This document shows positions 32,921 to 55,555 of a stretch of 64,000 nucleotides of DNA, piece by piece; position 1 is the first letter of the stretch; every line of letters starts with the position of its first letter. This stretch comes from Spirochaetia bacterium (lineage in GTDB: Bacteria > Spirochaetota > Spirochaetia > SZUA-6 > Bin103). The translations under genes were made by a program, and so were the position numbers. The notes below the pieces were generated by a model, which was not told the origin of the DNA, did not search any database, and saw only the letters and a list, made by a program, of their open reading frames with translations. The stretch is from NCBI GenBank assembly GCA_965208575.1, contig CBDBOV010000005.1, positions 448,001 through 512,000 of the forward strand. Reading direction: 5' to 3'.

Positions 32921-32926
32921 GGGCCA

Positions 32927-35580: not shown

Positions 35581-36522
35581 ATGCCAGAAGAGGCAACTCG
35601 TATCTCAGCGCTGCGCACGGGCAAGCTGGATATCATAGGAAATGTGGGAACCGTCAGCATTGCCAGTGTCGATGTCGTAAGGGGCCTCCGGAAGACCAAC
35701 CCCGAAATCGTCGTATCGCAGTACTTTCTACGGGCGCTTCAGTCCTTTGCCATGAACATTCGCAACGCGCCCTTTGACGACATCAGGGTGCGCCACGCGC
35801 TGCAGATGACAATGGACCTGGAGACGATCAACGACACCTACTATGACGGTTTTGCAAGCTGGGTGCCCATGGGGCTGAGCCGGGTCCCGGAGTATCACCG
35901 GCCGTTTGAAGAGTGGCCCGAAGAGCTCAAGCAATACTACAGTTATGACCCTGAAGGTGCCGAGACGCTCCTGGATGAGGCCGGCTACCCGCGCGGCGCA
36001 GATGGCGTTCGATTCAAGACCACCCTCCAGCACCGCGACGTCATAGACTTGGGCTACACGGAGATTGCTGTGGGCTTCTGGGCTGATATTGGCGTTGACG
36101 TAACGATTGATATCATTGACACGGCAGCCCTGATCGCCAATAGAACGGACGCAAGTTATGAGATGATCACTGGCGACCTTGGTTTTTCTTTGGAGCCTGC
36201 CATTCTTGTAGGCTTCTATCGACCTAATCAGCACGTCTATGCGTTGACGGGCGGAGTCGAGACCCCCGAGTTGACCGCCTCCTCTGATGCCTTTTTTGCC
36301 GCTACAACCGTCGAGGAGCGGAAGAAAGCAGCCATAGATTTTGATATGGCCATAGTGCAACAGCACAATCAGATATGGGGTGCTCTGGCACCGCAGTTTC
36401 AGGCGAGCCAGCCATGGCTCAAGGGCTTCAACGGTGAAGTGGGGCTGGGAGCTATTGCAGGTCATCCTCTGATGGCCCGCCTCTGGATTGACCAGGATCT
36501 GAAGCGGGAGATGGGGTTCTGA
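35581..36522 (+). pseudogene. 5'-truncated family-5 SBP
   Basis: Begins at the internal EEATRISALR motif and ends RLWIDQDLKREMGF; no signal peptide. Confidence 0.85.
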
Positions 36523-36623
36523 GGAAGGTCGCCGCAGGCGACTTGCAGCAGCGCTGTGCGCGGCTGCTCTGAGCAAGGGCGCCGGGAGCCCCGAGCTTCC
36601 CGGCGCCTGTTTCCCACGAAGAC

Positions 36624-37264
36624 ATGAGAGCCTACGTCATCCGGCGCCTGCTGCTGGTCGTCCCTACCCTGTTCATCCTGAGCGTGCTGGTGTTCCTGTC
36701 GGTCCGCTTCATCCCCGGCGACGTCATCGACAACATGGTCGGTCGCATGGATTACGCCGGCGGCGAGATCGACCGCGCGGCCATGGAACGCAGGCTCGGC
36801 CTGGATTTGCCGATCCACGTGCAGTACGGGCGCTGGATCGGCGACATCCTCCTGCGCGGCACCCTTGGCGAGTCGCTGCTGGGCGGTTGGCGGATCGAGC
36901 AGCGCATAATGGGACGACTGCCGGTCACCGCCGAGCTGGGCGCGCTGGCCATCCTCATCGGCCTGGTCATCGCGCTGCCGGTGGGCATCTACTCGGCGGT
37001 GCGCCAGTACACGGCCGCCGACTACCTGGGACGGTCGGTGGCCATCATGGGGCTGGCGACGCCCAACTTCTGGCTGGGGACCATGGTGATGATCTATCCT
37101 GCCATCTGGTGGGCTTGGTCGCCGCCGATGGAACTGATCCCGTTGGCCGGCTCATCCACGGGGCGCGGCTGTCGCTGTCGGTGGGGCTGGCCGCCACCGC
37201 GCTCACCGTCGTGGTGGCGGTGCTGATCGGCGGCACCACCGGCTTCATCGGCGGCCGAGAGTAG
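36624..37264 (+). pseudogene. dppB::dppC remnant with two internal deletions
   Basis: dppB to about 37148, jump to mid dppC (CTCATCCACGGGGCG), then jump to a dppC-end-like sequence (GAGTAGCGG.ATCAAC, shared with about 45414). Confidence 0.85.
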
Positions 37265-37318
37265 CGGGATCAACGCTATCGCGCTCAACGCCGAGATCGC
37301 AGACGGGTGACGGCGGGA

Positions 37319-37651
37319 TCAGGCCAGATCGGCGGGGAGCTCCACCACCGCCCGCCGTCCGAGCGCTCGTGCCCACTCGCGTACGAATCCGATCGTCGGA
37401 TTGCCGGTGAAGCGCTCGGCTTGGGAAATGGCCTGCTGCGTGCAACCGAGCCGCTCCGCGAGCCGGCCTTGGGTGAACCCGGCGGACTCTCGCGCCTCAC
37501 GCAGCAGGTAGCCCGGCGGATCGGTCTCCCAGGGCGGGACTCTTCCCCATCTGCGCAACGCCTTCCACTCTTCGTACGACCGAGGCTTGCGCCGGCTCAA
37601 GTGTGTCCGCGGCAACGCAGGACGCGCACGCGGAGCCACGTAAAACCTCAT
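37319..37651 (-). CDS. XRE-family HTH protein
   Basis: LLREARESAGFTQGRLAERLGCTQQAISQAE; ATGA overlap with the upstream NTase. Confidence 0.82.
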   Translation of the reverse strand: MRFYVAPRARPALPRTHLSRRKPRSYEEWKALRRWGRVPPWETDPPGYLLREARESAGFTQGRLAERLGCTQQAISQAERFTGNPTIGFVREWARALGRRAVVELPADLA

Positions 37652-38250
37652 GGGTTCGTGCGCGCCCATGTCTCCACCTCCGTGTGCGTCGGCTCTCGTG
37701 CGACGTGGGTTCGGGCGAAGGCCACGAGCGAGTCGAGCGCTGCTGACGCCTCGTTGCGTTCGGCAAGGGCGCGCAGTCGAGCAAGGTTCGGGCGGTGGTT
37801 TCCGCTCGACCACAACAGCCAAGCGTTGTAGCCATCGATCTCCGATCGCCAGAACTGCCATGCCGCGAGTCGGTCCACTATGAGCTCCTCCAGCCCGACC
37901 ACCACGACCGACGTGGTGCCTACGCGAATTGTCGCGACAACGTTCCCGCGATCCAGAGCGTCGTCGGGGAATTCGAGGAACAACCGGTGTCGCTCATGAA
38001 TCCAATGTCGACCACGGCGCTCGAATCCGGCCTCGCTCATCCGCTTGGCGACTGCCGCCGTCACGACTCCTACGAAATCCAGATCTCCGGTTCGATATGC
38101 GCCACCGGTGTACAGCTCGACCGCACCACCTCCCACCAGGGTGGGCACGGCATCGTCGATCGAGAACAGCGATTGAACCCAAGCGGCCACGGCAGCCACT
38201 CGATCCGGCCCGTCAGGTTTCCTGGCGGCTGCATCCAGACCCTCGCTCAC
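37648..38250 (-). CDS. Nucleotidyltransferase (DUF6036-like)
   Basis: LVGGGAVELYT...TGDLDFV, EELIVDRL. Confidence 0.78.
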   Translation of the reverse strand: MSEGLDAAARKPDGPDRVAAVAAWVQSLFSIDDAVPTLVGGGAVELYTGGAYRTGDLDFVGVVTAAVAKRMSEAGFERRGRHWIHERHRLFLEFPDDALDRGNVVATIRVGTTSVVVVGLEELIVDRLAAWQFWRSEIDGYNAWLLWSSGNHRPNLARLRALAERNEASAALDSLVAFARTHVAREPTHTEVETWARTNP

Positions 38251-38310
38251 AATACATGCATTGTACAGCGGGCGAGTGGGACCTGCAAGCGCATGCCCGC
38301 GTACGTAGCG

Positions 38311-38338
38311 CGTAACGGCGGTACCGGTCGCGATGGGC
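38311..38338 (+). repeat. Right half of the unit-boundary palindromic motif (copy 1)
   Basis: CGTAACGGCGGTACCGGTCGCGATGGGC. Confidence 0.8.
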
Positions 38339-38349
38339 CCCAGTCCGAT

Positions 38350-38378
38350 TTGACAGCTCGTTGCGCGTGGATTACGAT
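38350..38378 (+). promoter_or_regulatory. Sigma70 promoter of the SBP operon
   Basis: TTGACA-N17-TACGAT; conserved at 50327. Confidence 0.75.
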
Positions 38379-38384
38379 GACTCC

Positions 38385-38799
38385 TTGTCGGAGAACACGC
38401 TAATGTGGACGACGCAATTCCATGAGCACTTGAGGACGCCACCGGTTGACGGGACCGGTGTGTCCTATCCCCCTCCACCCCAAGCATTTACACGATTCGC
38501 ACTAGCTCTTCGCGCTGAGCGCGCGGGACGCCCCGCGCACCGCTTCGCCTGCACCACCGCTCACCCGACCACTCTCAACCCGCAGCGCCGGCGAGGCCGG
38601 TCACTCACATTCGCTGCGTCACCGGCGTCGGCCCCATGCGGCGCTCCAGGCTCAGGTCGGCGCACGCGTCAAGGGAGGTCCCGTATGTAGACTCGGGGCT
38701 GTGGCCATCGCTTGCCGGGCACCGGCGATTGTGGGTGTACGTCGAGAGTGGGCGAAGGATGCACAGGGAAACCAGCACTCTCTATTACAAGGAGCAAAG
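38385..38799 (+). other. Conserved long 5' leader with hairpins and a possible 95-aa uORF (38403-38690)
   Basis: Aligns with 50362-50782; shared stems and a shared open frame. Confidence 0.6.
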
Positions 38800-40605
38800 A
38801 TGCGTTACGCATTCTTGAGAACATTCCTCGCCGGACTGTTCGGATTCGTCCTGACGGCGACCGGCGTGTGGGCAAGCCCGGCCGCCGAAGAGGAGCCGGC
38901 AGCCGCCATGGAGAAGGAAATGGTGACCGACCCCACCACCGGAAAGATGGTGACCGCGCCGGAGTACGGCGGGACTCTGACCTATCCGTATGTCATAGAA
39001 TTCGAAAGCGACCCCTTTGTTGTTGGCGGCGCTGCGGCCTACCTCATAGGCGGTGTCAATGAGAATCTCGCCCGGCCGAACTGGGGACTTGCTCGGGAAG
39101 AACTCGCCTTTAACGGGCCCTACGTTCCTCTGTTTGCTTTCACCGGGGAGCTGGCGGAAAGTTGGGAAACGCCCGACCCACTGACGTACGTATTCCACAT
39201 CCGTCAGGGCGTTCACTACGCTCTCGATCCAGACAGTGAGGCCAGTCGGCTGGTAGGTGGTCGAGAGCTCACTGCCGATGATGTCGTCTATACCTATCAG
39301 CGCATGACCGCTCGGGGTGACTTCACCGAACGTCCTACAATTTCCAGAGCAGCTATCGATCTGCCATGGGAATCGATAGAGGCCAGCGACAAATACACCG
39401 TTGTCATGAGGCTGACGGAGCCGTCGATCGGTGCGCTCGGGGCTATTATCAACGAAGGTTTGCACCAGATATTGCCTCGTGAGGTAATCGAGCAATACGG
39501 CGACTATACGGATTGGAAGAACGTGGTCGGCACCGGGCCCGTTATGCTGACCGACTACGTCGAAGGCGTCTCCAAAACCTTTACCAAGAATCCTGACTAC
39601 TGGGGCTTCGACGAAAAATACCCGGAGAACCGCCTGCCATATGTTGACCAGATAAGGGCCGTCCTTATAGCAGAAGAAGCAACACGGATATCGGCACTAC
39701 GCTCGGGTACGATTGATATGATACGCCTCTCTGGCGTCGAGATAAAGTCCCTCGACGTGGTAAAGGGCCTCCAGCGGACTAACCCCGACATTGCGATATG
39801 GCCATTTTACCAGCGGTCGCTGGATGCCATAACTCTGAACCCACAAAAAGCCCCCTTTGACGATATCAGAGTACGCCACGCGCTGCAGATGGCAATAGAC
39901 CTGGAGACGATCAGCGATACCTACTATGGTGGTTTCGCCGACTGGCAACCACCGCGCTTCATTGGCGCCAAGGGGTTTTACACTGAATGGGAAGAGTGGC
40001 CCGCAGAGCTCAAGCAGTACTACACCTACGACCCGGCAGGGGCTGAGAGGCTCCTTGATGAGGCAGGATATCCGCGCGGTGCGGACGGCGTCCGATTCAA
40101 GTTCGAACATCAGCACCGTGACATCGGGGATTTGGGCTATGTAGAAATAGTCGCCGGCTACTGGGCTGATATTGGCATTGATGTAACGCTTAGTATTCAC
40201 GAGTGGCCGAATCTCGCTGCTACTATGGCAGAAAGGAACTATGAGTCGATTTATGGCGGCATGGCCAGAGAGTCCCCGGACTGGGCCATGGGATTATATA
40301 ACTCGGACTCGGTTCGGCTACGCACATATGTGGGCGGAGTCGAGAACCCTGTGCTGGCCGCCACCCAAGCTGCCTATTTCGGCGCCACTAGCATCGATGA
40401 GCAGATGCAGGCGGCAAGCGAGCATGGCATGGAGGTGATAAGGCATCACTATGTGATATGGGGTCCTATGGCTCCAGGGTATCAGGCCAGCCAGCCGTGG
40501 GTGAAAGGCTTTAACGGTGAAACCTTGAACACAGTCCAGTATGAGCAAAACGTCCTCACCCGCCTCTGGATCGACCAGGATCTGAAGCGAGAAATGGGCT
40601 TCTGA
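38800..40605 (+). CDS. Family-5 ABC solute-binding protein
   Basis: AAGGAG RBS, signal peptide, PEYGGTL, LAESWE, VGTGP. Confidence 0.93.
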   Translation: MRYAFLRTFLAGLFGFVLTATGVWASPAAEEEPAAAMEKEMVTDPTTGKMVTAPEYGGTLTYPYVIEFESDPFVVGGAAAYLIGGVNENLARPNWGLAREELAFNGPYVPLFAFTGELAESWETPDPLTYVFHIRQGVHYALDPDSEASRLVGGRELTADDVVYTYQRMTARGDFTERPTISRAAIDLPWESIEASDKYTVVMRLTEPSIGALGAIINEGLHQILPREVIEQYGDYTDWKNVVGTGPVMLTDYVEGVSKTFTKNPDYWGFDEKYPENRLPYVDQIRAVLIAEEATRISALRSGTIDMIRLSGVEIKSLDVVKGLQRTNPDIAIWPFYQRSLDAITLNPQKAPFDDIRVRHALQMAIDLETISDTYYGGFADWQPPRFIGAKGFYTEWEEWPAELKQYYTYDPAGAERLLDEAGYPRGADGVRFKFEHQHRDIGDLGYVEIVAGYWADIGIDVTLSIHEWPNLAATMAERNYESIYGGMARESPDWAMGLYNSDSVRLRTYVGGVENPVLAATQAAYFGATSIDEQMQAASEHGMEVIRHHYVIWGPMAPGYQASQPWVKGFNGETLNTVQYEQNVLTRLWIDQDLKREMGF

Positions 40606-40782
40606 GCCGACGGCTTCGCCGTTGGCTTAAGGAGTCGCTGCGCGACTCCAAGGAAACTGCCAGCGGCGGTTTCAATTGCAGGCGCGCCAGGCGCGCCTGC
40701 GCCGCAACTCTCAGGCGATTGAATCAGCGTGTTGGCCCCTCTCACCCCGGGGTGGGAGGGGCCGGGTCGCGGTGACTGGGTC

Positions 40783-41742
40783 ATGAGAGCCTACATCATC
40801 CGGCGGCTGCTGCTGGTCATCCCCACGTTGTTCATTCTGAGCGTGTTGGTGTTCCTGTCGGTCCGCTTCATCCCCGGCGACGTCATCGACGTCATGGCCG
40901 CCCGTATCGAGGCGATGGGCAGCGGCCAAGTCGACCGCGCGGCCATGGAACGCAGGCTCGGCCTGGACCTGCCGATCCACGTGCAGTACGGCCGCTGGAT
41001 CGGCGACATCCTCCTGCGCGGCACCCTTGGCGAGTCGCTACTTGGCGGTTGGCGGATCGAGGAGCGCCTGCTGGGACGACTGCCGGTCACCGCCGAGCTC
41101 GGGCTGCTGGCCATCCTCATCGGCCTGGTCATCGCGCTGCCGGTGGGCATCTACTCGGCGATCCGCCAGTACACCGCCGCCGACTACGTGGGACGGTCGG
41201 TCGCCATCATGGGGCTGGCGACGCCCAACTTCTGGCTGGGAACGATGGTGATGATCTACCCGGCCATCTGGTGGGCGTGGTCGCCGCCGATGGAACTGAT
41301 TCCGTTGGCCCAGGACCCGCTGGGCAACCTCGGCATGTTCCTGATCCCGAGCCTGATCCTGGGCACCTACCTGGCGGCCAGCACCATGCGCATGACGCGT
41401 ACCATGATGCTGGAGGTGCTGCGCCAGGACTACATCCGCACGGCCTGGGCCAAGGGTCTGCTGGAGCGGTCGGTGATCCTGCGCCACGCCGTCAAGAACG
41501 CGATCATCCCGGTGGTGACGCTGGTGGGCATGCAGCTCCCGATCCTGGTGGGCGGCTCGGTGATCATCGAGAATATCTTCAACCTGCCGGGGCTGGGGCG
41601 GCTGATGCTGGACGCGCTGGGCGACCGCGACTACCCGGTGGTGTCGGCGATAAACCTGTTCTTCGCCACGGTCGTGGTGTTGGTCAACCTGGTGACCGAT
41701 CTGCTGTACGCGTCGCTGGACCCGCGGATTCGCTACGAATGA
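40783..41742 (+). CDS. DppB-like permease
   Basis: MRAYIIRRLL...LDPRIRYE. Confidence 0.93.
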   Translation: MRAYIIRRLLLVIPTLFILSVLVFLSVRFIPGDVIDVMAARIEAMGSGQVDRAAMERRLGLDLPIHVQYGRWIGDILLRGTLGESLLGGWRIEERLLGRLPVTAELGLLAILIGLVIALPVGIYSAIRQYTAADYVGRSVAIMGLATPNFWLGTMVMIYPAIWWAWSPPMELIPLAQDPLGNLGMFLIPSLILGTYLAASTMRMTRTMMLEVLRQDYIRTAWAKGLLERSVILRHAVKNAIIPVVTLVGMQLPILVGGSVIIENIFNLPGLGRLMLDALGDRDYPVVSAINLFFATVVVLVNLVTDLLYASLDPRIRYE

Positions 41743-41881
41743 GAAGGAAGGCCACTCCGTGACCCGGAACAACAGGCAATGCGATGCGCAGGCAGCGCCC
41801 ACTGGCCAGCATTTCGGGTCAGCAGGAAACCCGATGCACGACGTTCGCCGGCTGGCGGCGCTGTTCGGGTGAGTCGGGCCG

Positions 41882-42817
41882 ATGGGTGACGTATCGCAGT
41901 TGACCCCGGCCGTCGCCGACCCGGGCGCGGGCGAGGCTGGGCAAGCCGGGCTGAGGAAGTTCTTCGGGCGGCTGGTGCGCGAGCAGCCGCTGGGGACCGC
42001 CGGCGGCATCGTCATCCTGATCCTGGTGCTGGTCAGCATCTTCGCCGATTCGCTGGCGCCCTACCGCTACGAGGAGATCCACCTGCGCGACCGCCTGCAG
42101 GCCCCCTCCGCCGCGTACCTGCTGGGCACCGACCACGTCGGGCGCGACCTGTTGAGTCGCCTCATCCACGGGGCGCGGCTGTCGCTGACGGTGGGGCTGG
42201 CCGCCACCGCCCTCACCGTCGTGGTGGCGGTGCTGATCGGCGGCACCACCGGCTTCATCGGCGGCCGGCTGGACTTGGTGACGCAGCGCTTCGTCGACGC
42301 CTGGATGGCGTTCCCGGGGCTGCTGTTGCTGCTCACCATCATGTCGATTGCCGGCCGCGGCATGCTGCAGATCATCATCGTGCTGGGCGTGTCGGGCGGC
42401 ATCCCGGCCTCCCGCGTGGTGCGCGGCGCGGTGCTGGGGGTGAAGGAGAACGCCTACTTCCAGGCCGCGCAGGCGATCGGCAGCTCGCGCCGGCGCTCGC
42501 TGCTGCGCCACGTGCTGCCCAACATCGCGGCCCCGATCATCATCATCTTCAGCATCAACGTCGGCGGCGTGATCATGTCGGAGGCCGCGCTGAGCTTCCT
42601 GGGTTTCGGCCTGCCGCCGGACATCCCGAGCTGGGGCGGCATGCTGAGCCGGGAGGGACGGCAGTACATGGAGATCGCGCCGCACCTGGCGCTGTGGCCG
42701 GGGGTGTGTCTGACCGTGGTCGTGTACAGCCTCAACATGTTCGGCGACGCGGTGCGCGACCTGCTGGACCCCCGCCTGCGCGGCCGCCTCGGCCGCTACG
42801 GCGCCGCCCGGAAGTAG
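41882..42817 (+). CDS. DppC-like permease
   Basis: LLGTDHVGRD...GDAVRDLLDPR. Confidence 0.93.
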   Translation: MGDVSQLTPAVADPGAGEAGQAGLRKFFGRLVREQPLGTAGGIVILILVLVSIFADSLAPYRYEEIHLRDRLQAPSAAYLLGTDHVGRDLLSRLIHGARLSLTVGLAATALTVVVAVLIGGTTGFIGGRLDLVTQRFVDAWMAFPGLLLLLTIMSIAGRGMLQIIIVLGVSGGIPASRVVRGAVLGVKENAYFQAAQAIGSSRRRSLLRHVLPNIAAPIIIIFSINVGGVIMSEAALSFLGFGLPPDIPSWGGMLSREGRQYMEIAPHLALWPGVCLTVVVYSLNMFGDAVRDLLDPRLRGRLGRYGAARK

Positions 42818-42909: not shown

Positions 42910-43548
42910 ATGACCGACGGCAACGGACACCGCGATCCAGCGACCCCGCAGGAGATCTGGGAAATCCTGCGCGAAATCTCCGCAGTGCAGCAGGAGACTG
43001 CGCGCCGCATGCAGGAGACCGACCGCCGGTTGCAGGCGACTGATGAACTGATCACGCGGCAGACACGGGCCGCCGACCGGCGCATCGACGAGTTGGACAA
43101 GCTGTTCAACGGACAGTGGGGCAAGCTGATCGAGTCACTGGTGGAAGGCGACCTCGTGCGGCTCCTTCAGCAGCGCGGCATCGCGGTGCTGCACACGGTG
43201 ACCAACCCGCGCCAGAACTACGGTGAGCGGCGCTGGGAGCTTGACATCGTGGCCGTCAACGGCGAAGAGGTCGTGGTGGTGGAGGTGAAGACCACCCTCA
43301 GGGTGCCCGACATCGATCGCTTCATGGCGCGGTTGAACGAGTTTTCGGAACTGATGCCGGAGTATGCTTCGCGCCGGATCTATGGGGCGGTCGCCTATCT
43401 GAAGGCGTACCAGGAGTCGGACGTGCGTGCCGAGCGTCTGGGCCTGTTCGTGATTCGTGCCACCGGCAGTAGTGCCAGCATCACCAACCGGGAGGGGTTT
43501 ACGCCGCGCACGTTCGGCCACCCGAGCAGGGCACCCGGGGGTCACTAG
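42910..43548 (+). CDS. Coiled-coil plus PD-(D/E)XK nuclease-fold protein (DUF3782-like)
   Basis: QETDRR coiled coil, WGKLIE, ELDIVAVNG...VVEVKT, AERLGLFVI. Confidence 0.8.
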   Translation: MTDGNGHRDPATPQEIWEILREISAVQQETARRMQETDRRLQATDELITRQTRAADRRIDELDKLFNGQWGKLIESLVEGDLVRLLQQRGIAVLHTVTNPRQNYGERRWELDIVAVNGEEVVVVEVKTTLRVPDIDRFMARLNEFSELMPEYASRRIYGAVAYLKAYQESDVRAERLGLFVIRATGSSASITNREGFTPRTFGHPSRAPGGH

Positions 43549-43561: not shown

Positions 43562-43778
43562 GGGGCGCGACCTCTTGAGCCGCCTCATCCACGGGGCGCG
43601 GATGTCGTTGGCGGTGGGACTGGCCGCCACCGCGCTCAACGTCGTCGTGGCGGTGCTGGCCGGCGGCACCACCGGCTTCATCGGCGAGCGGCTGGACCTG
43701 GTGACTACCGGTATCGACCAGGAAGCCTTCCAGGCACTTCGCCAGCGGCTCGGAGAGTCGGATCGGACGTCCGAGTAA
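43562..43778 (+). pseudogene. dppC internal fragment fused to the last codons of the Rpn gene
   Basis: 43562-43704 resembles dppC at about 54120-54260; 43704-43920 nearly copies 50098-50310. Confidence 0.85.
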
Positions 43779-43857
43779 CCTCCCTTCTTGACGAGCCGTA
43801 CCACTGGAGACTCCCCCGTATTGCGCTCCGTATGGTCGATCACATGCAAGGCGGCGA

Positions 43858-43900
43858 GAATCGACCGCGGGCCGTAACGGCGGTACCGGTCGGGATGGGC
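43858..43900 (+). repeat. Unit-boundary palindromic motif (copy 2)
   Basis: GAATCGACCGCGGGCCGTAACGGCGGTACCGGTCGGGATGGGC. Confidence 0.85.
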
Positions 43901-46237: not shown

Positions 46238-46325
46238 TGAACACACCGGCACCGGCCATGGCTTGCTCCGTGTCGCCGGTCTCGGCATGGTCGAATCATA
46301 TGCAATGCGGCGAGGAGCCGGAGCA

Positions 46326-46368: not shown

Positions 46369-46370
46369 TT

Positions 46371-47229: not shown

Positions 47230-47230
47230 C

Positions 47231-48080
47231 CCGGCTGGTGCGCGAGCAGCCTCTGGGCACCGCCGGCGGCATCGTCATCCTGCTCCTGGTGCTGGTCAGC
47301 ATCTTCGCCGATTCGCTGGCGCCCTACCGCTTCGAGGAGATCCACCTGCGCGACCGCCTGCAGGCCCCCTCCGCCGCGTACCTGCTGGGCACCGACCACG
47401 TCGGGCGCGACCTGCTGAGCCGCCTCATCCACGGGGCGCGGCTGTCGCTGACGGTGGGGCTGGCCGCCACCGCGCTCACCGTCGTGGTGGCGGTGCTGGT
47501 CGGCGGCACCACCGGCTTCATCGGCGGCCGGCTGGACCTGGTGACGCAGCGCTTCGTCGATGCCTGGATGGCGTTCCCGGGGCTGCTGTTGCTGCTCACC
47601 ATCATGTCGATTGCCGGTCGCGGCATGCTGCGGATCATCATCGTGCTGGGCGTGTCGGGCGGCATCCCGGCCTCGCGGGTGGTGCGCGGCGCGGTGCTGG
47701 GGGTGAAGGAGAACGCCTACTTCCAGGCGGCGCAGGCGATCGGCAGCTCGCGCCGGCGCTCGCTGCTGCGCCACGTGCTGCCCAACATCGCCGCGCCGAT
47801 CATCATCATCTTCAGCATCAACGTGGGCGGGGTGATCATGTCGGAGGCGGCGCTGAGCTTCCTGGGCTTCGGCCTGCCGCCGGACATCCCGAGCTGGGGC
47901 GGCATGCTGAGCCGGGAGGGGCGCCAGTACATGGAGATCGCGCCGCATCTGGCGCTGTGGCCGGGGGTGTGTCTGACCGTGGTGGTGTACAGTCTCAACA
48001 TGTTCGGCGACGCGGTGCGCGACCTGCTGGACCCCCGCCTGCGCGGCCGCCTCGGCCGCTACGGCGCCGGCAGGAAGTAG
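47231..48080 (+). pseudogene. 5'-truncated dppC
   Basis: RLVREQPLG...GRYGAGRK*; lacks the native start. Confidence 0.85.
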
Positions 48081-48211: not shown

Positions 48212-48493
48212 TCAGTCCAGCGAGCGAGGCTTCTGGCGCAGGTTCATCACCGCTGTAACGATAATCGCGTCGCCGTGAACGTAGTAGAGAATCCCGTAAG
48301 GAAATCGGTCGACGAGGGCGCGACGAGTGCGTTCTGCGATCAACGCCCAGGCGCGAGGGAATTGAAGAATCCGCTCCAGCGTCCGCTCGACCTCAAGAGC
48401 AAACTCGTGTCCGAGATCGGAACGTTGCTCGTTGTAGTACGATATGGCTTCGACCCATTCGGTTCTCGCCTGAGGGAGGAACTCAACCGTCAC
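48212..48493 (-). CDS. RelE/ParE toxin
   Basis: EFLPQARTEWVEAISYY, RFPYGILY, AVMNLRQKP. Confidence 0.88.
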   Translation of the reverse strand: MTVEFLPQARTEWVEAISYYNEQRSDLGHEFALEVERTLERILQFPRAWALIAERTRRALVDRFPYGILYYVHGDAIIVTAVMNLRQKPRSLD

Positions 48494-48713
48494 GGCCGTG
48501 AAGGTGTCGCTTGACCTGATCGTAGGGGATGGTCTTGGCGTCACCTGCGAGATAGGCATCGATCCGTCGTTCGGACTCCCGTGCCCAGGCCGACTCGACC
48601 TCGCGTTCCCGTTCAGACCGTAGACTCCGATAGAGCTGATCGATGACCTCTGCTCGTTCGAGGGGCGAGAGGGCAAGCGCGTTGGCGACTACGGTTTGAG
48701 ACCTCTCAGTCAT
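48483..48713 (-). CDS. Addiction-module antitoxin
   Basis: ALALSPLERAEVIDQL...AWARESERR...TIPYDQV. Confidence 0.85.
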   Translation of the reverse strand: MTERSQTVVANALALSPLERAEVIDQLYRSLRSEREREVESAWARESERRIDAYLAGDAKTIPYDQVKRHLHGRDG

Positions 48714-48734
48714 CGGAGCAATTATACCTGGACA

Positions 48735-49067
48735 GCGCACAACGGGACAGTACCGCCGAGGTCTACCGCCCGGGCACGCTCGAGGAACTCGTCTTCCAGC
48801 CCCTACCCTGCCAACACGAATCACCCGAGTCCGCCGGATGAACTCCGGATCCTCGACCCGCAAGACGAAACCCGCGGCCTGCATGGCGGATGCGAACCGC
48901 TGCGGATCGTCGGGTTCCAGCTTGACGGTGACGTCGACGTTGGCGCTCAGACGGGGCACGCCGTACGCGGTGACTGCCTGCGCGCCGAACCCGTACCAGC
49001 GCCCTCGGCCTGCAAGCACCTTTGCCAGTGCGGTCAGAAGTTCAACTGCGGCCGGTGGAAGCGGCAC
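48735..49067 (-). pseudogene. Internally deleted nucleotidyltransferase
   Basis: WYGFGAQAV.AYGVPR...VDVTV, then out-of-frame GLEDEFLERA. Confidence 0.65.
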
Positions 49068-49296
49068 GGGTGAACAGCTCGGCCAAGCGTACGTGGGCGA
49101 GCAGGTCCTGCTTCCGGGAGGCGGCATCGGGCCACTCCGGATTGTGCAGCAGTGCTTGTTTGCGCAACTCGTCGGCGATGCGCAGCCCTTCCAGCGGTCC
49201 GTAGCGGGCGATGCGCTCGGCCCAATACGCGTCGTTGGCAGCACGTGCCGTTCGCCACTCGCGAGCCATGTAGTCGCGAATGCCACGGCTGATCAT
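49042..49296 (-). CDS. Small hypothetical protein, probable partner of the NTase
   Basis: Overlaps the NTase start; IRDYMAREW...WPD. Confidence 0.6.
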   Translation of the reverse strand: MISRGIRDYMAREWRTARAANDAYWAERIARYGPLEGLRIADELRKQALLHNPEWPDAASRKQDLLAHVRLAELFTRAASTGRS

Positions 49297-49471
49297 GGTG
49301 GCAGTGTAGCATGGTGCGTCGAACAGCGCTTCGTCGACGCCTCGATCGGCAGTGGAGGATGAGGTTCACCAGTCTTCCAACCTCCCCACAGCCAACTGGG
49401 CGCGGACGCCCAGTTGACGCTATCCGGCAGGAGCCGCGGCGGGGAGGGGTCGAGAGTGACGAGCCAGCGGG

Positions 49472-49788
49472 GCGGGCGGCATCCCGACGTCCCGGGTGGT
49501 GCGCGGCGCGGTGCCGGGGGTGAAGGAGAACGTCTACTTTCAGGCCGCGCAGGCGATCGGCAGCTCGCGCCGGCGCTCGCTGCTGCGCCGCGTGCTGCCC
49601 AACATCGCGGCGCCGATTATCATCATCTTCAGCATCAACGTGGGCGGGGTGATCATGGCGGAGGCGGCGCTGAGCTTCCTGGGTTTCGGTCTGCCGCCGG
49701 ACATCCCGAGCTGGGGCGGGATGCTGAGCCGGGAGGGGCGTCAGTACATGGAGATCGCGCCGCACCTGGCGCTGTGGCCGGGGGCGTG
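49472..49788 (+). pseudogene. dppC fragment (tiny dppC pieces also at about 49324-49352)
   Basis: VVRGAVPGVKENVYF...HLALWPG. Confidence 0.85.
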
Positions 49789-49789
49789 C

Positions 49790-50171
49790 GGCGTTGCTGA
49801 TGGCGGCGCAGTACATGGGCGAGTTGGCAAGGAGCGGACGGACGGCCCCGTTCGGAGCCATCGTGAGGTATGTCATCACGACGCAGGACAAGCAGACCGT
49901 GAGGGAGTTCGGCGAGGCGTTGCGACGGCACGTGCCAGGACCGGGAGGAGACATGAAGACGTACGCAGAAGAGTTGCTCCAGGAAGGACTCCGGAAGGGT
50001 CGCCAGGAAGGCCGCCAGGAAGGTCGCCAAGAAGGTCAGCTTGGCACGATCGAGAACTTCCTGCGGGCCGGAATCGAGTGGTCGATCATCGAGGAAGCTA
50101 CCGGTATCGACCAGGAAGCCTTCCAGGCACTTCGCCAGCGGCTCGGAGAGTCGGATCGGACGTCCGAGTAA
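49790..50171 (+). pseudogene. C-terminal remnant of an Rpn (transposase_31 / PD-(D/E)XK) protein; internal ORF 49953-50171 intact
   Basis: GGDMKTYAEELLQEG...GRQEGRQEGRQEG...IEEATGI; GGAGGAG RBS before ATG 49953. Confidence 0.78.
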
Positions 50172-50242
50172 CCTCCCTTCTCGACGAGCCGTACCACTGG
50201 CGACTCCCCCGTATTACGCTCCGATCATATGCAAGGCGGCGA

Positions 50243-50285
50243 GAATCGACCGCGGGCCGTAACGGCGGTACCGGTCGGGATGGGC
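50243..50285 (+). repeat. Unit-boundary palindromic motif (copy 4)
   Basis: Same sequence as 43858-43900. Confidence 0.85.
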
Positions 50286-50326
50286 GGGCTCGGCTGCTCG
50301 GCTCCAGCCGATGGATCCAGCGCGAC

Positions 50327-50355
50327 TTGACAGCTCGTTGCGCGTGGCTTATGGT
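50327..50355 (+). promoter_or_regulatory. Sigma70 promoter of the SBP operon
   Basis: TTGACA-N17-TATGGT. Confidence 0.72.
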
Positions 50356-50361
50356 GGCCCT

Positions 50362-50782
50362 CTGTCGGAGAACAGCCTTATGTGGACGATGCAATACCAT
50401 AAGCACGTGAGGACGCCACCGGTTGCCGCGACCGGTGTGTCCTACCTCCCCCAAGCATTTACACGAAATTCACTAACCCCTCGCACTGACCGGGCCGGGC
50501 GCCCCGCGCGCCGCTTCGTCTGCACCGCTCTTCTTACCGCTCTTACCACCTGCACACTGCACCGTCGGCGTTGCCGGTTACTCACTTTCGTTGCGCCGCA
50601 GAACACCGCCCCACGCGGTGCTCCGGGCTCAGGTCCGCGCACGCGTTCAAGGAGGTGCCGGATGTCGAAGTAGCTCGGGGCTGGCGCCGTCGCTTTCCGG
50701 GCACCGGAGATTGCCGGTGCGCCTCGAGAGTGGGCGACGGATGCACAGCGAGACCAGCACTCTCGAATTGCAGGAGGCAAAG
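50362..50782 (+). other. Second copy of the conserved long leader (possible uORF 50380-50673)
   Basis: Homologous to 38385-38799. Confidence 0.6.
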
Positions 50783-52582
50783 ATGCAACACGCAATCTTG
50801 CGAAAGATCCTGGCGGTACTGATCGGTCTCGGTCTGGCCGCGACCGGCCTCTGGGCCGCTGCCAGCGAAGAGGCACCGGCAGCCGCCGCCGGGAAGGAGA
50901 TGGTGACCGACCCCACTACCGGAAACCAGGTGGTGGCGCCGGGCTATGGCGGAACACTGACCCTGCCCTACAAGCTTCCAGACATTGCTCCCACTGACCC
51001 CTTTTATGACGGTGGACGCCCGACATGGTGGATCAGTGGCGTTAATGAGAAACTCGCCTACGCGAACTGGGCAATAGATAGGGACGAATTTGATTTCAGT
51101 TCCTATTACTACCCTTTTAGCGTCATGACAGGGAACCTGGTGGAAAGCTGGGCAACACCCGACCCACTAACTATCGTCTTCCACATCCGCAAGGGCGTTC
51201 ACTGGCACAATAAGGCACCGATGAACGGTCGGGAGCTGACTGCCGGTGATGTCGAGTATAACTTTCGGCGCATTAAGGGTTGGGGCAAGGAGGGAGTTCC
51301 ATTACAGCAGTTCGACATATTCCGCATGCCAGTCGAATCGATAACGGCCACCGACGAATCGACGGTTGTCGTCAAGATGGAGCAGCCATCCCTCGATGCA
51401 GTGCCCTCTTTTACAACCGGAACCATGGCTTTTATATTGCCCCCCGAGGTAATCGAACAACACGGCGACTACAAGGATTGGCGGAACATGGTCGGCACCG
51501 GGCCCTTTATGCTGACTGACTTGGTCGAAGGCGTCTCCAGGACCTATATCAAGAATCCTGACTACTGGGGCCACGACCCAAAGTACCCGGAGAACCGGTT
51601 GCCCTATGTTGACGAAGTAAGGCATCTGTATATGGGAGACGAAGCGACACTGCTCGCCGCCCTACGCTCGGCCAGCATTGACATGGTACATACTTCCGGG
51701 GGCATGTCCGTGGGATCCATCGATACGGTACGGAGCCTCCAGCGGACTAATCCAGAACTCCAGGTGGGCCCTTTTTGGATTTACAATAATAGCTCTGCTT
51801 CCATGAACACGCGCAACCCGCCCTTTGACGACATCAGGGTACGCCAGGCCATGCAGATGGCAGTGGACCGGGAGACGATCAACGAGACTTACTATAGCGG
51901 TCTTGGGAAGCCAACACCAACGGGAGTCATCGGAGATAACCTTAAGGGATTTTACGTCCCGTTTGAAGAGTGGCCCGAAGAGGTCAAGAAAACCTATAGG
52001 TATGACCCGGAAGGGGCGGAAGCATTGCTTGATGCGGCTGGATATCCGCGCGGTGCGGACGGCGTTCGATTCAAGACCACGTATGTTTTCCGTGGCGTTT
52101 TTGATATAGGCATTATAGAAGTACTTGCCGGCTACTGGGATGAAATTGGCGTTAGTGTAGCGATTACTCCATATGACAGTCCGACTTGGCAAGCCCTTGT
52201 ATCAGACCACTCGTATGAAATGGCCACCGGGGCCGTGAACGCGAGTCTTACCCCGGCCGCAGTCATGGGCTGGTATAGCTGGGCTGCGAAGGCGTTAACG
52301 CTGGAAACGGCCGGCGGAGGTGCGCCGGAGTTGGACGCTGCCCATGATAGCTTTTTCGCCGCTACCAGCATTGAGGAGCAGCAGAAGTTCGCCAAAGAGT
52401 ACGACATGTTTATAATACGGAATCAGTTCAATGTAATGGGTCCTAAAGCTCCCATGTTTCAGTTCGCCCATCCGTGGGTGAAAGGTTGGAACGGTGAAGC
52501 CAACATGGCCAACTGGAACGATTATACGATCTTCGCCCGCTTTTGGATCGACCAGGATCTGAAGAAAGAAATGGGGTTTTAG
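50783..52582 (+). CDS. Family-5 ABC solute-binding protein
   Basis: AGGAGG RBS, signal peptide, PGYGGTL, VGTGPF, WIDQDLKKEMGF. Confidence 0.93.
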   Translation: MQHAILRKILAVLIGLGLAATGLWAAASEEAPAAAAGKEMVTDPTTGNQVVAPGYGGTLTLPYKLPDIAPTDPFYDGGRPTWWISGVNEKLAYANWAIDRDEFDFSSYYYPFSVMTGNLVESWATPDPLTIVFHIRKGVHWHNKAPMNGRELTAGDVEYNFRRIKGWGKEGVPLQQFDIFRMPVESITATDESTVVVKMEQPSLDAVPSFTTGTMAFILPPEVIEQHGDYKDWRNMVGTGPFMLTDLVEGVSRTYIKNPDYWGHDPKYPENRLPYVDEVRHLYMGDEATLLAALRSASIDMVHTSGGMSVGSIDTVRSLQRTNPELQVGPFWIYNNSSASMNTRNPPFDDIRVRQAMQMAVDRETINETYYSGLGKPTPTGVIGDNLKGFYVPFEEWPEEVKKTYRYDPEGAEALLDAAGYPRGADGVRFKTTYVFRGVFDIGIIEVLAGYWDEIGVSVAITPYDSPTWQALVSDHSYEMATGAVNASLTPAAVMGWYSWAAKALTLETAGGGAPELDAAHDSFFAATSIEEQQKFAKEYDMFIIRNQFNVMGPKAPMFQFAHPWVKGWNGEANMANWNDYTIFARFWIDQDLKKEMGF

Positions 52583-52802
52583 TAATCGCATCGTAGTACA
52601 ACTGATTTCCGGTCCCCGCCCGTGTCGAGCCCATACTGCGTAGGCGGTGAGCGGGGCGAACGCTGATGCAGCCAGGCGGGTAGCAACTGGTAAACGGTGG
52701 GATGGCGGCACCAGTCTGCCATCCCACTTTCAATATAAGAAACCGCCGATACATACAGGGAGGCTAGAGATTCACTGTTAAACCAATGCTGAGGTGTATG
52801 AC

Positions 52803-53804
52803 ATGAGAGCCTATATCATCAGGAGGGTATTGCTGATCATCCCCACCCTGTTCATATTGACCGTCCTGGTCTTTCTGTCGGTCCGCTTCATCCCGGGTGA
52901 TGTCATAGACATAATGGCCAGCAGGTTGGACCATGCGATGGCCGCGTTTGACCGTGAAGCTGTTGAGCGTGCGCTGGGATTAGACCAACCTGTGTACGTG
53001 CAGTATGGACGCTGGATAGGAGTCTTGCCGACCCCTGACTGGGTTACCGGTGAGTCCCACTTCAAAGGTCTCCTCCAGGGCAACCTTGGCCACTCACTGG
53101 TTGGCGGCGGTTACGCGATAGGGGAGAGGATCGTAGATAGATTGCCGGTTACCTTCGAGCTCGGGTTGCTGGCCATCCTCATCGGCCTGGTCATCGCGCT
53201 GCCGGTCGGCATCTACTCGGCGGTGCGGCAGTACACCGCTGCCGACTACGTGGGACGATCGGTCGCCATCATGGGGCTGGCGACGCCCAACTTCTGGCTG
53301 GGAACGATGGTGATGATCTACCCGGCCATCTGGTGGGCGTGGGCGCCGCCGATGGAGTTTGTTTCATTCTCCGAAGACCCACTGGGCAACCTCGGCATGT
53401 TCCTGATTCCCAGCCTGATCCTCGGCACCTACCTGGCGGCCAGCACCATGCGCATGACCCGCACCATGATGCTGGAGGTGCTGCGCCAGGACTACATCAG
53501 GACCGCCTGGGCCAAGGGGCTGCTGGAGCGGTCGGTAATCCTGCGCCACGCGGTCAAGAACGCCATCATCCCGGTGGTGACGCTGGTGGGCATGCAGATC
53601 CCGATTCTGGTGGGCGGCTCGGTGATCATCGAGAACATCTTCAACCTGCCGGGGCTGGGACGGCTGATGCTGGATACGCTCACAGACAGAGACTACCCGG
53701 TGGTCTCGGGGCTGAACCTGTTCTTCGCCACGGTCGTCGTCTTGGTCAATCTCCTGACCGATCTGCTGTACGCGGCGCTGGACCCGCGGATTCGCTACGA
53801 ATGA
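52803..53804 (+). CDS. DppB-like permease (mosaic)
   Basis: MRAYIIRR...LDPRIRYE. Confidence 0.93.
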   Translation: MRAYIIRRVLLIIPTLFILTVLVFLSVRFIPGDVIDIMASRLDHAMAAFDREAVERALGLDQPVYVQYGRWIGVLPTPDWVTGESHFKGLLQGNLGHSLVGGGYAIGERIVDRLPVTFELGLLAILIGLVIALPVGIYSAVRQYTAADYVGRSVAIMGLATPNFWLGTMVMIYPAIWWAWAPPMEFVSFSEDPLGNLGMFLIPSLILGTYLAASTMRMTRTMMLEVLRQDYIRTAWAKGLLERSVILRHAVKNAIIPVVTLVGMQIPILVGGSVIIENIFNLPGLGRLMLDTLTDRDYPVVSGLNLFFATVVVLVNLLTDLLYAALDPRIRYE

Positions 53805-53812
53805 GCCGGGCC

Positions 53813-53862
53813 GATGGATGACGGTGGGTGACGATGGGTGACGATGGGTGACGATGGGTGAC
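53813..53862 (+). repeat. Five tandem copies of a 10-bp unit (consensus GATGGGTGAC) over the dppC start
   Basis: gatggatgac ggtgggtgac gatgggtgac gatgggtgac gatgggtgac. Confidence 0.9.
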
Positions 53863-54795
53863 GTATCCCGGCTGACGCCGGCCGGCGCCGAGCCGGTCGC
53901 GGGGGCGGCTGCGACGGGGCGGGCGGGGCTGAGGAAGTTCTTCGGGCGGCTGGTGCGCGAGCAGCCGCTGGGCACCGCCGGCGGCATCGTCATCCTGCTC
54001 CTGGTGCTGGTCAGCATCTTCGCCGATTCGCTGGCGCCCTATCGCTACCAGGAGATCCACCTGCGCGACCGCTTGCAGGGCCCGTCGGCGCAGTACCTGC
54101 TGGGCACCGACCACGCGGGGCGGGACTTCCTGAGCCGCCTCATCCACGGGGCGCGGATGTCGTTGACGGTGGGACTGGCCGCCACCGCGCTCAACGTCGT
54201 GGTGGCGGTGCTGGTCGGCGGTACCACCGGCTTCATCGGCGGCCGGCTGGACCTGGTGACGCAGCGCTTCGTCGACGCCTGGATGGCGTTCCCGGGACTG
54301 CTGTTGCTGCTCACCATCATGTCGATTGCCGGCCGCGGCATGCTGCAGATCATCATCGTGCTGGGGGTATCGGGCGGCATCCCGGCCTCGCGCGTGGTGC
54401 GCGGCGCGGTGCTGGGGGTGAAGGAGAACGTTTACTTCCAGGCGGCGCAGGCGATCGGCAGCTCGCGCCGGCGCTCGCTGCTGCGCCACGTGCTGCCCAA
54501 CATCGCGGCGCCGATCATCATCATCTTCAGCATCAACGTGGGCGGGGTGATCATGTCGGAGGCGGCGCTGAGCTTTCTGGGGTTCGGCCTGCCGGCGGAC
54601 GTGCCGAGCTGGGGCGGCATGCTCAGCCGCGAGGGGCGGAAGTACATGGAGATCGCGCCGCACCTGGCGCTGTGGCCGGGGGTATGCCTGACCGTGGTGG
54701 TGTACAGCCTCAACATGTTCGGCGACGCGGTGCGCGACCTGCTCGACCCCCGCCTGCGCGGCCGCCTCGGCCGCTACGGCGCCGCCCGGAAGTAG
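53854..54795 (+). CDS. DppC-like permease
   Basis: Nearly identical to 41882-42817. Confidence 0.93.
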   Translation: MGDVSRLTPAGAEPVAGAAATGRAGLRKFFGRLVREQPLGTAGGIVILLLVLVSIFADSLAPYRYQEIHLRDRLQGPSAQYLLGTDHAGRDFLSRLIHGARMSLTVGLAATALNVVVAVLVGGTTGFIGGRLDLVTQRFVDAWMAFPGLLLLLTIMSIAGRGMLQIIIVLGVSGGIPASRVVRGAVLGVKENVYFQAAQAIGSSRRRSLLRHVLPNIAAPIIIIFSINVGGVIMSEAALSFLGFGLPADVPSWGGMLSREGRKYMEIAPHLALWPGVCLTVVVYSLNMFGDAVRDLLDPRLRGRLGRYGAARK

Positions 54796-54888
54796 CGGCG
54801 TCAGCTCTCGATTTGATTGCTGTTGATTGTTCCGGCGGCTTTACCGGAACGGACGGTCGGCGCTACAATAGGATAAGCGAACGTACCC

Positions 54889-55167
54889 ATGACCGACGGC
54901 AACGGACACCGCGATCCAGCGACCCCGCAGGAGATCTGGAACGTCCATCAGGCCAAGACCAATTTCTCGCGATTGCTGGAGCGTGTCCGGCGCGGTGAAG
55001 AGATCGTGATCGCCAAGGCTGGCAAGCCCGTGGCCAAGCTCATTGCGTACCACGACGCCGGAGCGCCGAGACGCGGTGGCCAGTGGCACGGCCGCGTAAA
55101 GTTCGCCGCCGACTTCGACGAGTTGCCGGCCGAGCTGACGGACGCGTTCTCCGGCCGCCGCGATTGA
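54889..55167 (+). CDS. Phd/YefM antitoxin with a chimeric N-terminus
   Basis: NVHQAKTNFSRLL...IAKAGKPVAKL; first 17 aa identical to the 42910 ORF. Confidence 0.85.
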   Translation: MTDGNGHRDPATPQEIWNVHQAKTNFSRLLERVRRGEEIVIAKAGKPVAKLIAYHDAGAPRRGGQWHGRVKFAADFDELPAELTDAFSGRRD

Positions 55168-55180
55168 AATCGCGATTTCC

Positions 55181-55555
55181 ATGCTGTTGCTCGATACCCA
55201 CGTTCTGCTGTGGTGGCTGGATGATCCGGCGTCGCTGGAAGCACCGGCCCGCAGGCTCATCGCCGACCCGCGCAACCGTGTGTTCGTGAGCGCGGCGGTG
55301 GCATGGGAGATTACCATCAAGCGCCAGCTCGGCAAGCTGGAGGCGCCGGACGATCTCGAAGCCGCACTCGAACAGGAGCGCTTTCAGCACCTGCCGATCA
55401 CGGTCGGCCACGCGCTGGTGGTAGCCGAGTTGCCGGCGATTCATGGCGACCCCTTCGACCGTATCCAGATTGCACAAGCTCGTCTGGATGCGCTGACCAT
55501 CGTCACCCGCGACGAGACGATCCCCCGCTACGACGTGCCCTGCCTGCGCGCGTGA
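55181..55555 (+). CDS. vapC: VapC PIN toxin
   Basis: LLLDTHVLLWW, WEITIK, HGDPFDR. Confidence 0.92.
   Translation: MLLLDTHVLLWWLDDPASLEAPARRLIADPRNRVFVSAAVAWEITIKRQLGKLEAPDDLEAALEQERFQHLPITVGHALVVAELPAIHGDPFDRIQIAQARLDALTIVTRDETIPRYDVPCLRA

Follow-up and report, generated by a model that had tools for sequence, protein, structure and literature searches.

A tandem array of recently expanded ABC importer units with toxin-antitoxin slots in a Spirochaetia genome, probably shuffled by homologous recombination

The stretch of 64,000 nucleotides analyzed here (the window) comes from a Spirochaetia genome (contig CBDBOV010000005.1) and contains, between 35.5 and 55.6 kb, a tandem stretch of lineage-specific and recently expanded importer units of the peptide-type ATP-binding cassette (ABC) class without an ATPase gene. 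Each unit is built in the order promoter, leader of ~450 nt, gene for a family-5 solute-binding protein (SBP), dppB, and dppC, and behind each end or remnant of dppC lies a small cargo that differs every time, toxin-antitoxin (TA) pairs being among these. The arrangement is probably that of a multicopy importer family shuffled by homologous recombination, with slots of high TA turnover and with decay by illegitimate events, and not that of an integron, to which the original prediction, made from the letters of the sequence, had likened it.

The GC content of the 64-kb window is ~68-72% and drops to 0.54-0.67 across 36-53 kb. Self-comparison with blastn shows a dense mosaic of direct repeats from 35.5 to 55 kb, the repeats being 0.3-1 kb long and 91-97% identical, and a more distant inverted copy at 28.1-30.0 kb. 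A Pfam scan covered all 149 open reading frames (ORFs) of >=60 amino acids (aa) overlapping 32-56 kb, and a second one took in 55 ORFs selected from outside that region, giving 204 ORFs in total. Self-comparison and the scan of the 149 ORFs confirm the predicted mosaic of repeated units as real and divide the array into two intact units, B and E, both on the + strand as had been claimed, and four to five decayed ones. Unit B (38350-42817) has a TTGACA-type promoter-like site and leader at 38350-38799, the SBP gene at 38800-40605, dppB at 40783-41742, and dppC at 41882-42817, and unit E (50327-54795) has the same elements at 50327-50782, 50783-52582, 52803-53804, and 53854-54795. The genes of both are open throughout with no internal stops, and their products match SBP_bac_5 (E 3e-60 and 2e-66 in B and E), BPD_transp_1, OppC_N, and BPD_transp_1_N. 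There is no ABC_tran match in any unit or among the 204 scanned ORFs of the window, and the ATPases for the units are presumably encoded elsewhere. The inverted unit on the - strand (28131-31864, with dppC at 28131-29060, dppB at 29057-30019, and the SBP gene at 30080-31864), which had been grouped with the array, is present and intact but is an older paralog, 75-77% identical in nucleotide sequence to units B, D, and E, with a short leader and a native-like SBP GC content at third codon positions (GC3) of 0.90.

The other units of the array, all on the + strand, are decayed. Unit A (35581-37257) retains the C-terminal part of the SBP gene (35581-36522), the 5' part of dppB (36623-37148), and an internal piece of dppC (37146-37257); its SBP gene is truncated by a block with a fragment of an HNH endonuclease gene (34847-35564, - strand, Pfam HNH E 2e-5), an inverted copy of which, 92.6% identical, is placed at 44608-45183. 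The debris of unit C (43562-43921) starts with an internal dppC piece (43562-43705) that is joined to the final 24 codons of an ORF for the tail of an Rpn protein (43705-43777) and ends in a copy of the motif block described below. The end region of this unit (44608-45419) is composed of the truncated HNH copy, a stretch at 45184-45341, and a 78-nt remnant of the dppC 3' end at 45342-45419. Unit D (46281-48080) comprises a motif block (46281-46372), an SBP fragment of the unit B type (46370-46668), a dppB fragment (46668-47228), and a dppC (47232-48080) without its first 87 nt. A further segment at 49467-50171 contains an internal dppC fragment (49467-49788) and an ORF for an Rpn C-terminal tail (49794-50171). 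The true 3' ends of dppC in the array are located at 42817, 45419, 48080, and 54795; these four stand from the earlier list of ends, and the two other positions on it, 37257 (given as about 37264) and 49788, are the edges of internal fragments. Joins within the debris, including that between dppB and dppC in unit A, have only 0-3 nt of microhomology, which argues for decay by illegitimate deletions and not by exchange at homologous arms or at the motif. The decay junctions are found in this window alone among the loci compared; similarly truncated dppC copies do occur in relatives.

A scan of species-representative genomes with the dppC of unit B gave 266 relatives, from which 72 loci were kept (designated by L numbers where they need to be told apart). 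No locus is identical to the window, the best match being 97%. Two genomes are close, OZ242313.1 and OZ253572.1, and in the latter the dppC copies are scattered over the chromosome in addition to one array of 42.6 kb. With overlaps between loci removed, 17 unique dppC copies (>=700 nt, >=88% identity) form a young clade, with three in the window, two in OZ242313.1, and 12 in OZ253572.1. The clade is set apart by a gap in identity, its copies being 91.4-96.7% identical and the next paralogs <=81.0%, and the inverted unit of the window falls among these old paralogs. An orthologue of unit B, L003b, is present in L003.

The divergence, composition, and phylogeny of the young units show that their SBP bodies and permease genes have different histories. 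Nine intact young units provide 36 pairs, 35 paralogous and one orthologous. In the paralogous pairs the synonymous divergence (dS) is 0.47-1.06 for the SBP gene, 0.12-0.49 for dppB, and 0.085-0.23 for dppC, a 4-5 fold variation within one operon, and in the orthologous pair of unit B and L003b it is uniform (0.110, 0.091, and 0.130, respectively). Along the unit the copies are 65-90% identical over the leader and 40-85% over the SBP body, compared with 90-99% over dppB and dppC, with the high identity beginning at the dppB start codon; conservation is also seen in the SBP signal peptide and in ~45 residues at the start of the mature protein. In 12 of 12 young units from the three genomes GC3 rises from 0.61-0.67 in the SBP gene to 0.83-0.94 in dppB and 0.88-0.97 in dppC. 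The young SBP genes of the window (38800-40605, 50783-52582, and 35581-36522) have a GC3 of 0.64-0.66 compared with >=0.9 for neighboring genes. In L042, from a genome of lower GC content (0.587), the GC3 of each of the three genes is 0.65-0.66; the SBP of this locus shares 71% amino acid identity with that of unit B, above any young paralog (<=62.5%), and its dppC is only 71.6% identical.

The trees give a similar picture. When 85 SBP bodies are placed on a tree, well supported (starred) branches force at least four label changes on the 10 that come from young units, and young-unit SBPs lie in a supported clade together with 11 old-unit SBPs. The dppB gene of unit B has that of L003b as its sister (99/98), but the dppC of the same unit clusters with that of unit D (84/70), and the dppB of unit E is chimeric, being diverged up to a breakpoint near 53140, with a GC3 of 0.82. 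Constraining the two orthologous dppC genes to group together lowers the log-likelihood by 23.4 units, with a p value in the approximately unbiased test (p-AU) of 0.052, and because of this value and because the group was chosen after the tree was seen, conversion of dppC after speciation is only suggested. Differing histories of this kind require recombination, either conversion of the permease genes, replacement of SBP bodies, or both, and as the SBP genes look old, divergent, and foreign in composition, their bodies may well have been exchanged or imported as modules. The part of the original prediction that made the near-identical permease genes homology arms is thus borne out by the dS contrast, the chimeric dppB, the conflicting SBP tree, and the GC3 jump.

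The slot that follows dppC was scanned by matching GC-frame-filtered ORFs within <=1.5 kb downstream of the central dppC against Pfam at the 69 loci that are long enough, with segments 6.0-7.5 kb downstream of dppC at 64 loci as controls. The remaining young-clade ends were scanned too, and copies of the window cargo were sought by tblastn. A TA pair or a small nuclease gene follows within 1.5 kb at 20 of 22 young-clade ends, with about ten TA families represented. The four true ends in the window are followed by the Hjc-like nuclease, MNT-HEPN, ParE with its antitoxin, and Phd-PIN, that is three TA pairs and one nuclease. Relatives contribute 18 unique young-clade ends, of which 12 are followed by TA families, four by nucleases (one full Rpn and three Hjc-like), and two by neither; the TA genes are Unstab_antitox with ParE (two ends), UPF0175 with DUF3368, BrnT with a helix-turn-helix (HTH) partner, MNT, Phd with PIN, RES with Xre, an AbiEii-like gene, VapB plus MazE with PIN (one end), a PIN fragment, DUF2442 with DUF4160, and a HicB-like gene with HicA. 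At the stricter threshold of the controls (1e-4) the TA count is 11 of 18 young-clade ends, compared with 6 of 60 older paralogs (Fisher p 2.7e-5), 2 of 15 older paralogs of the same two genomes (p 0.011), and 2 of 64 control segments (p 1.5e-7). The cataloguing of genes after dppC paralogs in related genomes that had been proposed as a check therefore finds the TA cargo to be non-random, the enrichment recurring in relatives and in the young clade only, and the order and identity of the cargo differ between genomes.

The left edge of the slot is nearly fixed. With the exception of a single class, the aligned dppC ends cease to be homologous at a point from -12 to +30 nt relative to the stop codon, and beyond that point they split into at least ten unrelated classes. 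The exception, at +143, is unit E, which has 143 nt in common with the Hjc class, so that the opening 19 codons of its Phd gene are those of the Hjc-like gene; the 94 nt upstream of this Phd gene are also Hjc-derived, and the join is at 54939/54940. The right edges vary, with C-terminal Hjc fragments of 41 and 63 aa lying before the next promoter in L002 and L003. The junctions of dppC with MNT, with the ParE block, and with Hjc recur in relatives with different neighbors. The ParE block lies ahead of the unit B orthologue in L003, and in the window it is a dppC piece, the Rpn tail, and unit E that come after it; the junction of dppC with MNT is also present in L002, where MNT has no HEPN. A VapB-PIN pair between peptidase and dehydrogenase genes of the window (18521-19122) has copies of 88-94% identity downstream of a young-clade dppC in L003 (11082-13058).

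In L001 (10001-12207) a full Rpn gene has a complete dppC on one side and, on the other, a repeat of the terminal 82 nt of dppC, and it looks as if this gene was inserted with duplication of the dppC end.

The cargo of the window is carried on both strands, with the XRE and nucleotidyltransferase (NTase)-like genes and the ParE block on the - strand and the Hjc-like, MNT-HEPN, and Phd-PIN genes on the + strand, and some of it has upstream inverted repeats of its own. Unit A is followed by an XRE-type HTH gene (37319-37648, -; HTH_3 E 1.5e-10) and by an ORF of 200 aa (37648-38250, -) that has no Pfam or NCBIfam match even at E <=1; a language-model search places it with clusters of the DUF6036/DUF2204/AbiEii type at 0.96-0.98, a lead only to an NTase fold. 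The gene after unit B (42910-43548, +) encodes a protein with an N-terminal coiled coil and a Pfam Hjc match (E 4e-6) that is partial, covering profile positions 3-51 of 93, with an NCBIfam Hjc score of 22.7 bits against a cutoff of 70, and the product is best called a PD-(D/E)XK nuclease. This gene is the commonest spacer gene of the related arrays, copies of 82-90% aa identity being found after dppC in L007 (three), L009, and L001. Its family is very large, with 3302 homologues at E <=1e-3, the top 120 being 70-100% identical and 180-272 aa long with several sharing one contig, and carries the precomputed Pfam label PF26618. The remnant of unit C is followed by MNT (45495-45809, +; NTP_transf_2 E 6e-10) and HEPN (45806-46237, +; E 2e-18), together matching PADLOC PDC-S09. 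Next to unit D are ParE (48212-48490, -), an Unstab_antitox antitoxin (48483-48692, -), an NTase-like fragment (48690-49040, -), and an adjoining ORF of 84 aa (49042-49296, -). The last two have no Pfam or NCBIfam match even at E <=1 but are kept at 90-92% aa identity in L003, where the whole ParE block (48212-49296) is kept at 90-96% after a copy of dppC. Phd (54889-55167) and PIN (55181-55555), both on the + strand and with Pfam matches, form the cargo of unit E.

The Rpn ORF at 49794-50171 encodes a C-terminal tail only, matching TIGR01784 at positions 222-269 of 273 (E 1.4e-6, below the cutoff), and the nuclease domain PF04754 is not found in it. It contains four-residue QEGR repeats, and a passage in PMC10400941 describes variable four-residue repeats common to Rpn proteins and short intragenic antitoxins.

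Near the inverted unit a Phd gene (27394-27666, +; PhdYeFM E 3e-8) and a PIN-like gene (27671-28108, +; E 0.047, a weak match) form a pair convergent with the inverted dppC. On its other side are a DUF3368 protein (31966-32469, -; PADLOC PDC-S70 E 3e-34), a UPF0175 antitoxin-like gene (32454-32927, -), a small ribbon-helix-helix-like ORF (32927-33193, +), and a PIN gene (33200-33637, +), all assigned by Pfam. Both partners have family matches in the adjacent pairs at 54889-55555, 48212-48692, 45495-46237, and 31966-32927, which by family membership are predicted type II TA pairs. The labels given to the cargo in the original prediction thus hold up, subject to corrections. MNT-HEPN, ParE with antitoxin, Phd-PIN at 54889-55555, and XRE have Pfam or PADLOC support, and others are weak or unsupported. 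The NTase labels gain no family match at 37648-38250 or 48690-49296, and only the former has the language-model lead; what was called Rpn is part of an Rpn-type protein; the nuclease assignment is retained on part of its profile; and the pair beside the inverted unit is secure for Phd and weak for PIN.

The motif GTAACGGCGGYACCGGTC, which had been described as a palindrome following the cargo and as a boundary element serving, with the permease genes, as a homology arm, occurs four times, always on the + strand and always within the array (38312, 43874, 46342, and 50259); in 100 shuffles this count was never attained. The motif is the minimal segment shared by the copies of a longer block, whose homology breakpoints differ in all four. 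The shortest block (38312-38340) is directly upstream of the unit B promoter, the second (43826-43921) lies in the unit C debris, the third (46281-46372) abuts the SBP fragment of unit D, and the fourth (50224-50310) precedes the promoter of unit E; the blocks of units C and E continue into the 3' end of the Rpn-tail ORF. The distance from the motif to the -35 box is 17 nt in unit B and ~50 nt in unit E, and the motif is present at just four of about seven cargo boundaries. Single-strand folding gives z-scores of +0.17, -0.25, -1.15, -1.79, and +0.11, no better than shuffled sequence. An exact search finds no copy in the 72 related loci, though these contain the same units and TA slots, and in a sensitive blastn search with the motif and leader blocks the leader is common to relatives only from about window position 38468 onward, the relatives having a promoter type of their own, unlike that of the window. 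The motif is best read as what remains of a 5' block that the units of this window alone possess. The four copies of the predicted motif stand, and a stable fold for it does not. Its candidacy as a recombination site is contradicted by the absence from relatives, the differing breakpoints, and the poor folding, and that as an attC-like hairpin by the z-scores. Two other candidates were set aside: a minus-strand coding remnant, for which the translations are unconvincing and the GC-frame pattern is wrong, and a palindrome at 43698-43721, which is the unique join of the dppC piece and the Rpn tail.

A true integron-like system in which an unseen site-specific recombinase acts on the motif and the dppC end is accordingly very improbable. 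It would account for a motif confined to the array, in one orientation and always between cargo and unit, for left junctions that cluster tightly at the dppC stop, and for the many different small cargo genes in a row. Against this stand the loci of relatives where the same units and slots occur without the motif, the four different breakpoints and unequal -35 distances, the z-scores, the cargo on both strands with some inverted repeats of its own, and the variable right junctions. No integrase, transposase, or recombinase family, Phage_integrase included, is found among the 204 scanned ORFs of the window, so that the recombinase which the original prediction suggested seeking beside the motif is not found among them. 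The array is integron-like by analogy only, with no IntI among those ORFs, no attC-like folding site, and no co-oriented promoterless cassettes. An artefact of assembly, with near-identical repeats collapsed or joined chimerically, is hardly credible. Repeats of this length and identity could invite it and the decay junctions are unique to the window, but copies differing by 3-9% can be told apart, the junctions of dppC with MNT, the ParE block, and Hjc are present at 88-96% identity in independently assembled genomes, a window protein is located on a contig of 1,261,091 bases, and relatives have similar truncated dppC copies.

A passive by-product of tandem duplication and decay in TA-rich islands, with the TA genes as selfish hitchhikers and the permeases alike through recency, is rather unlikely yet deserves more weight. 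Other parts of the window contain TA pairs too (VapB-PIN, 18521-19122; a RelE/MqsA-like pair, 60306-60930), the units decayed through illegitimate joins, the Hjc-bearing units of L007 have been duplicated along with their spacer, and the star-like dppC tree is compatible with a single burst of duplication. Duplication of whole units, however, cannot yield an SBP dS 4-5 times that of dppC, a GC3 jump inside an operon, or SBPs that interleave with those of distant units; it leaves unexplained an enrichment specific to the young clade when older paralogs of the same genomes are compared (11/18 vs 2/15, p 0.011), and the nearly identical left edge of some ten unrelated TA families. Turnover driven by nucleases is also improbable, if less so than an integron. 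Breaks made near the dppC end by the Hjc-like or Rpn proteins of the spacers would here stimulate conversion, insertion, and microhomology joins. No spacer gene is commoner than the Hjc-like one, which is apparently ancestral, belongs to the multicopy family of 3302 homologues, and has left fragments upstream of units in L002, L003, and L001; a full Rpn gene follows dppC in L001 (11008-12015, Transposase_31 E 7e-28), two dppC fragments of the window adjoin Rpn tails, and Rpn proteins promote RecA-independent recombination according to a passage in PMC5350276. Most ends, however, have neither gene, the Rpn copy of the window has no nuclease domain, and the Hjc match is partial.

In the preferred reading, a multicopy importer family shuffled by homologous recombination, such recombination or gene conversion would keep the two permease genes near-identical among copies, and SBP bodies would be swapped or imported as modules between one arm formed by the leader and signal peptide and another formed by dppB-dppC. 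Conversion rather than repeated duplication would homogenize the permeases, and sharing of ATPases encoded elsewhere would favor that homogenization. The dppC stop codon would border a high-turnover slot that has received many unrelated TA pairs as well as two genes for small nucleases. Integration may be anchored by homology on one side, since the left edge is fixed in dppC and the right edges are variable, and repeated turnover would wear the left remnant down to the dppC end; a mechanism of this type is known as homology-facilitated illegitimate recombination. Illegitimate deletions would have eroded several units of the window, leaving fragments of which the motif is one. The TA pairs would persist as loss of the spacer by recombination between the flanking repeats would kill the cell, an idea that is attractive because the enrichment is confined to near-identical young copies, and it is plausible that they stabilize the array, as had been predicted.

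Several points weigh against this account. The dppC tree is star-like, and its p-AU of 0.052 concerns a group named after the tree was seen. The low GC3 of the SBP genes could come from selection and not from import. Six extra ends were scanned at E <=1e-3 with ORFs of >=55 aa, compared with 1e-4 and >=60 aa for the controls, and DUF2442 with DUF4160 was counted as what is presumably a TA pair. The ends are not fully independent, three Hjc ends coming from one tandem array, and represent three genomes only. The older paralogs are the fairer control because control segments of young loci often fall inside the next unit. Finally, the genome of the window is outside the compared collection, and the evidence from the window is that of 64 kb.

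The leader is conserved in the window and in L001-L007 as 450-506 nt between the TTGACA promoter-like site and the SBP start. A hairpin with arms GAGAGTG and CACTCTC is placed just 5' of the ribosome-binding site, the arms being GAGAGTA and TACTCTC in L006. RNAalifold on 10 leader sequences predicts 65 pairs, 13 with compensatory changes that come mostly from one divergent sequence, and Rfam gives no match for the whole window at the gathering threshold or for 38300-38850 at E <=1. The leader may be a new cis-regulatory RNA. Upstream of the SBP leader in L006 (5915-6367) a ~60-nt repeat is present four times in a tandem-like arrangement, and it recurs upstream of SBPs in L005, L008, L035, L052, L059, and L072; it may be a small dispersed repeat.

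Directly beyond the array a sugar-type ABC operon (55571-60930) contains SBP_bac_1 and two permeases, also without an ATPase gene, and then a RelE-like/MqsA-like pair (60306-60930). At the opposite end of the window (3-6855, -) adjacent genes for a DNA polymerase III alpha-like protein, an impB/mucB-type (IMS) protein, and a LexA-like repressor look like an SOS mutagenesis cassette. An 81-nt stretch just beyond the LexA-like gene (5355-5435) is 81% identical to 43949-44029 in the unit C debris. A gene at 22363-24060 (-) has ten LDL-receptor class B repeats and shows strong internal DNA periodicity in the self-comparison. Synteny of L006 with the window at 17-21 kb was considered as evidence for insertion of a unit and dropped, the M28 peptidase piece being 88% and the PhyH gene only 74% identical.

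If the recombination reading is true, transporter specificity would diversify by plugging foreign SBP genes into a conserved multicopy permease frame, and TA pairs would gather where near-identical repeats make DNA prone to deletion. A bolder version, offered tentatively as a possibility, is a functional analogue of an integron, under selection and run on homologous recombination, in which a permease chassis present in many copies, with its leader and signal-peptide arm, would capture foreign SBP bodies as specificity cassettes, TA modules after dppC would lock each cassette against recombinational loss between the repeats, and the whole would serve as a stable, expandable uptake library with shared ATPases. 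The array provides a natural test outside integrons of whether TA genes stabilize repeat arrays, with young and old paralogs in the same genomes as an internal control, and the conserved long leader and the very large multicopy family of small nucleases are candidates for follow-up. No description of such transporter arrays was found in the literature searched.

Compared with known systems, the units resemble Opp/Dpp importers in having SBP_bac_5 and two BPD_transp_1 permeases with OppC_N and BPD_transp_1_N, and differ in the leader of ~450-500 nt, the extreme copy number, and the two in-operon ATPase subunits, which are not found here. Families under concerted evolution and the orphan arrays of rhs and cdi similarly have a core kept uniform by recombination, variable modules, and core fragments before displaced modules; in rhs/cdi the modules are C-terminal domains fused to the core, whereas here they are whole genes (SBP and TA) and the core consists of permeases. 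Hotspots for defense and TA genes share the fixed gene edge, the turnover of unrelated TA and defense genes, and a slot that differs between relatives. In a difference with defense islands, there is here no integrase or mobile element carrying the cargo, and since the bounding gene is multicopy (at least 17 copies in three genomes), each genome contains the hotspot many times over. Sedentary chromosomal integrons share the long arrays of small variable genes with repeated sequence between them and TA pairs scattered among them, and passages in PMC13108822 and PMC11023631 report that TA cassettes of integrons limit cassette loss. Unlike integrons, the array has no integrase found, no attC-like fold, and cargo that is neither promoterless nor co-oriented, and its repeats are functional permease genes of 2 kb, with exchange that fits homologous and illegitimate recombination.

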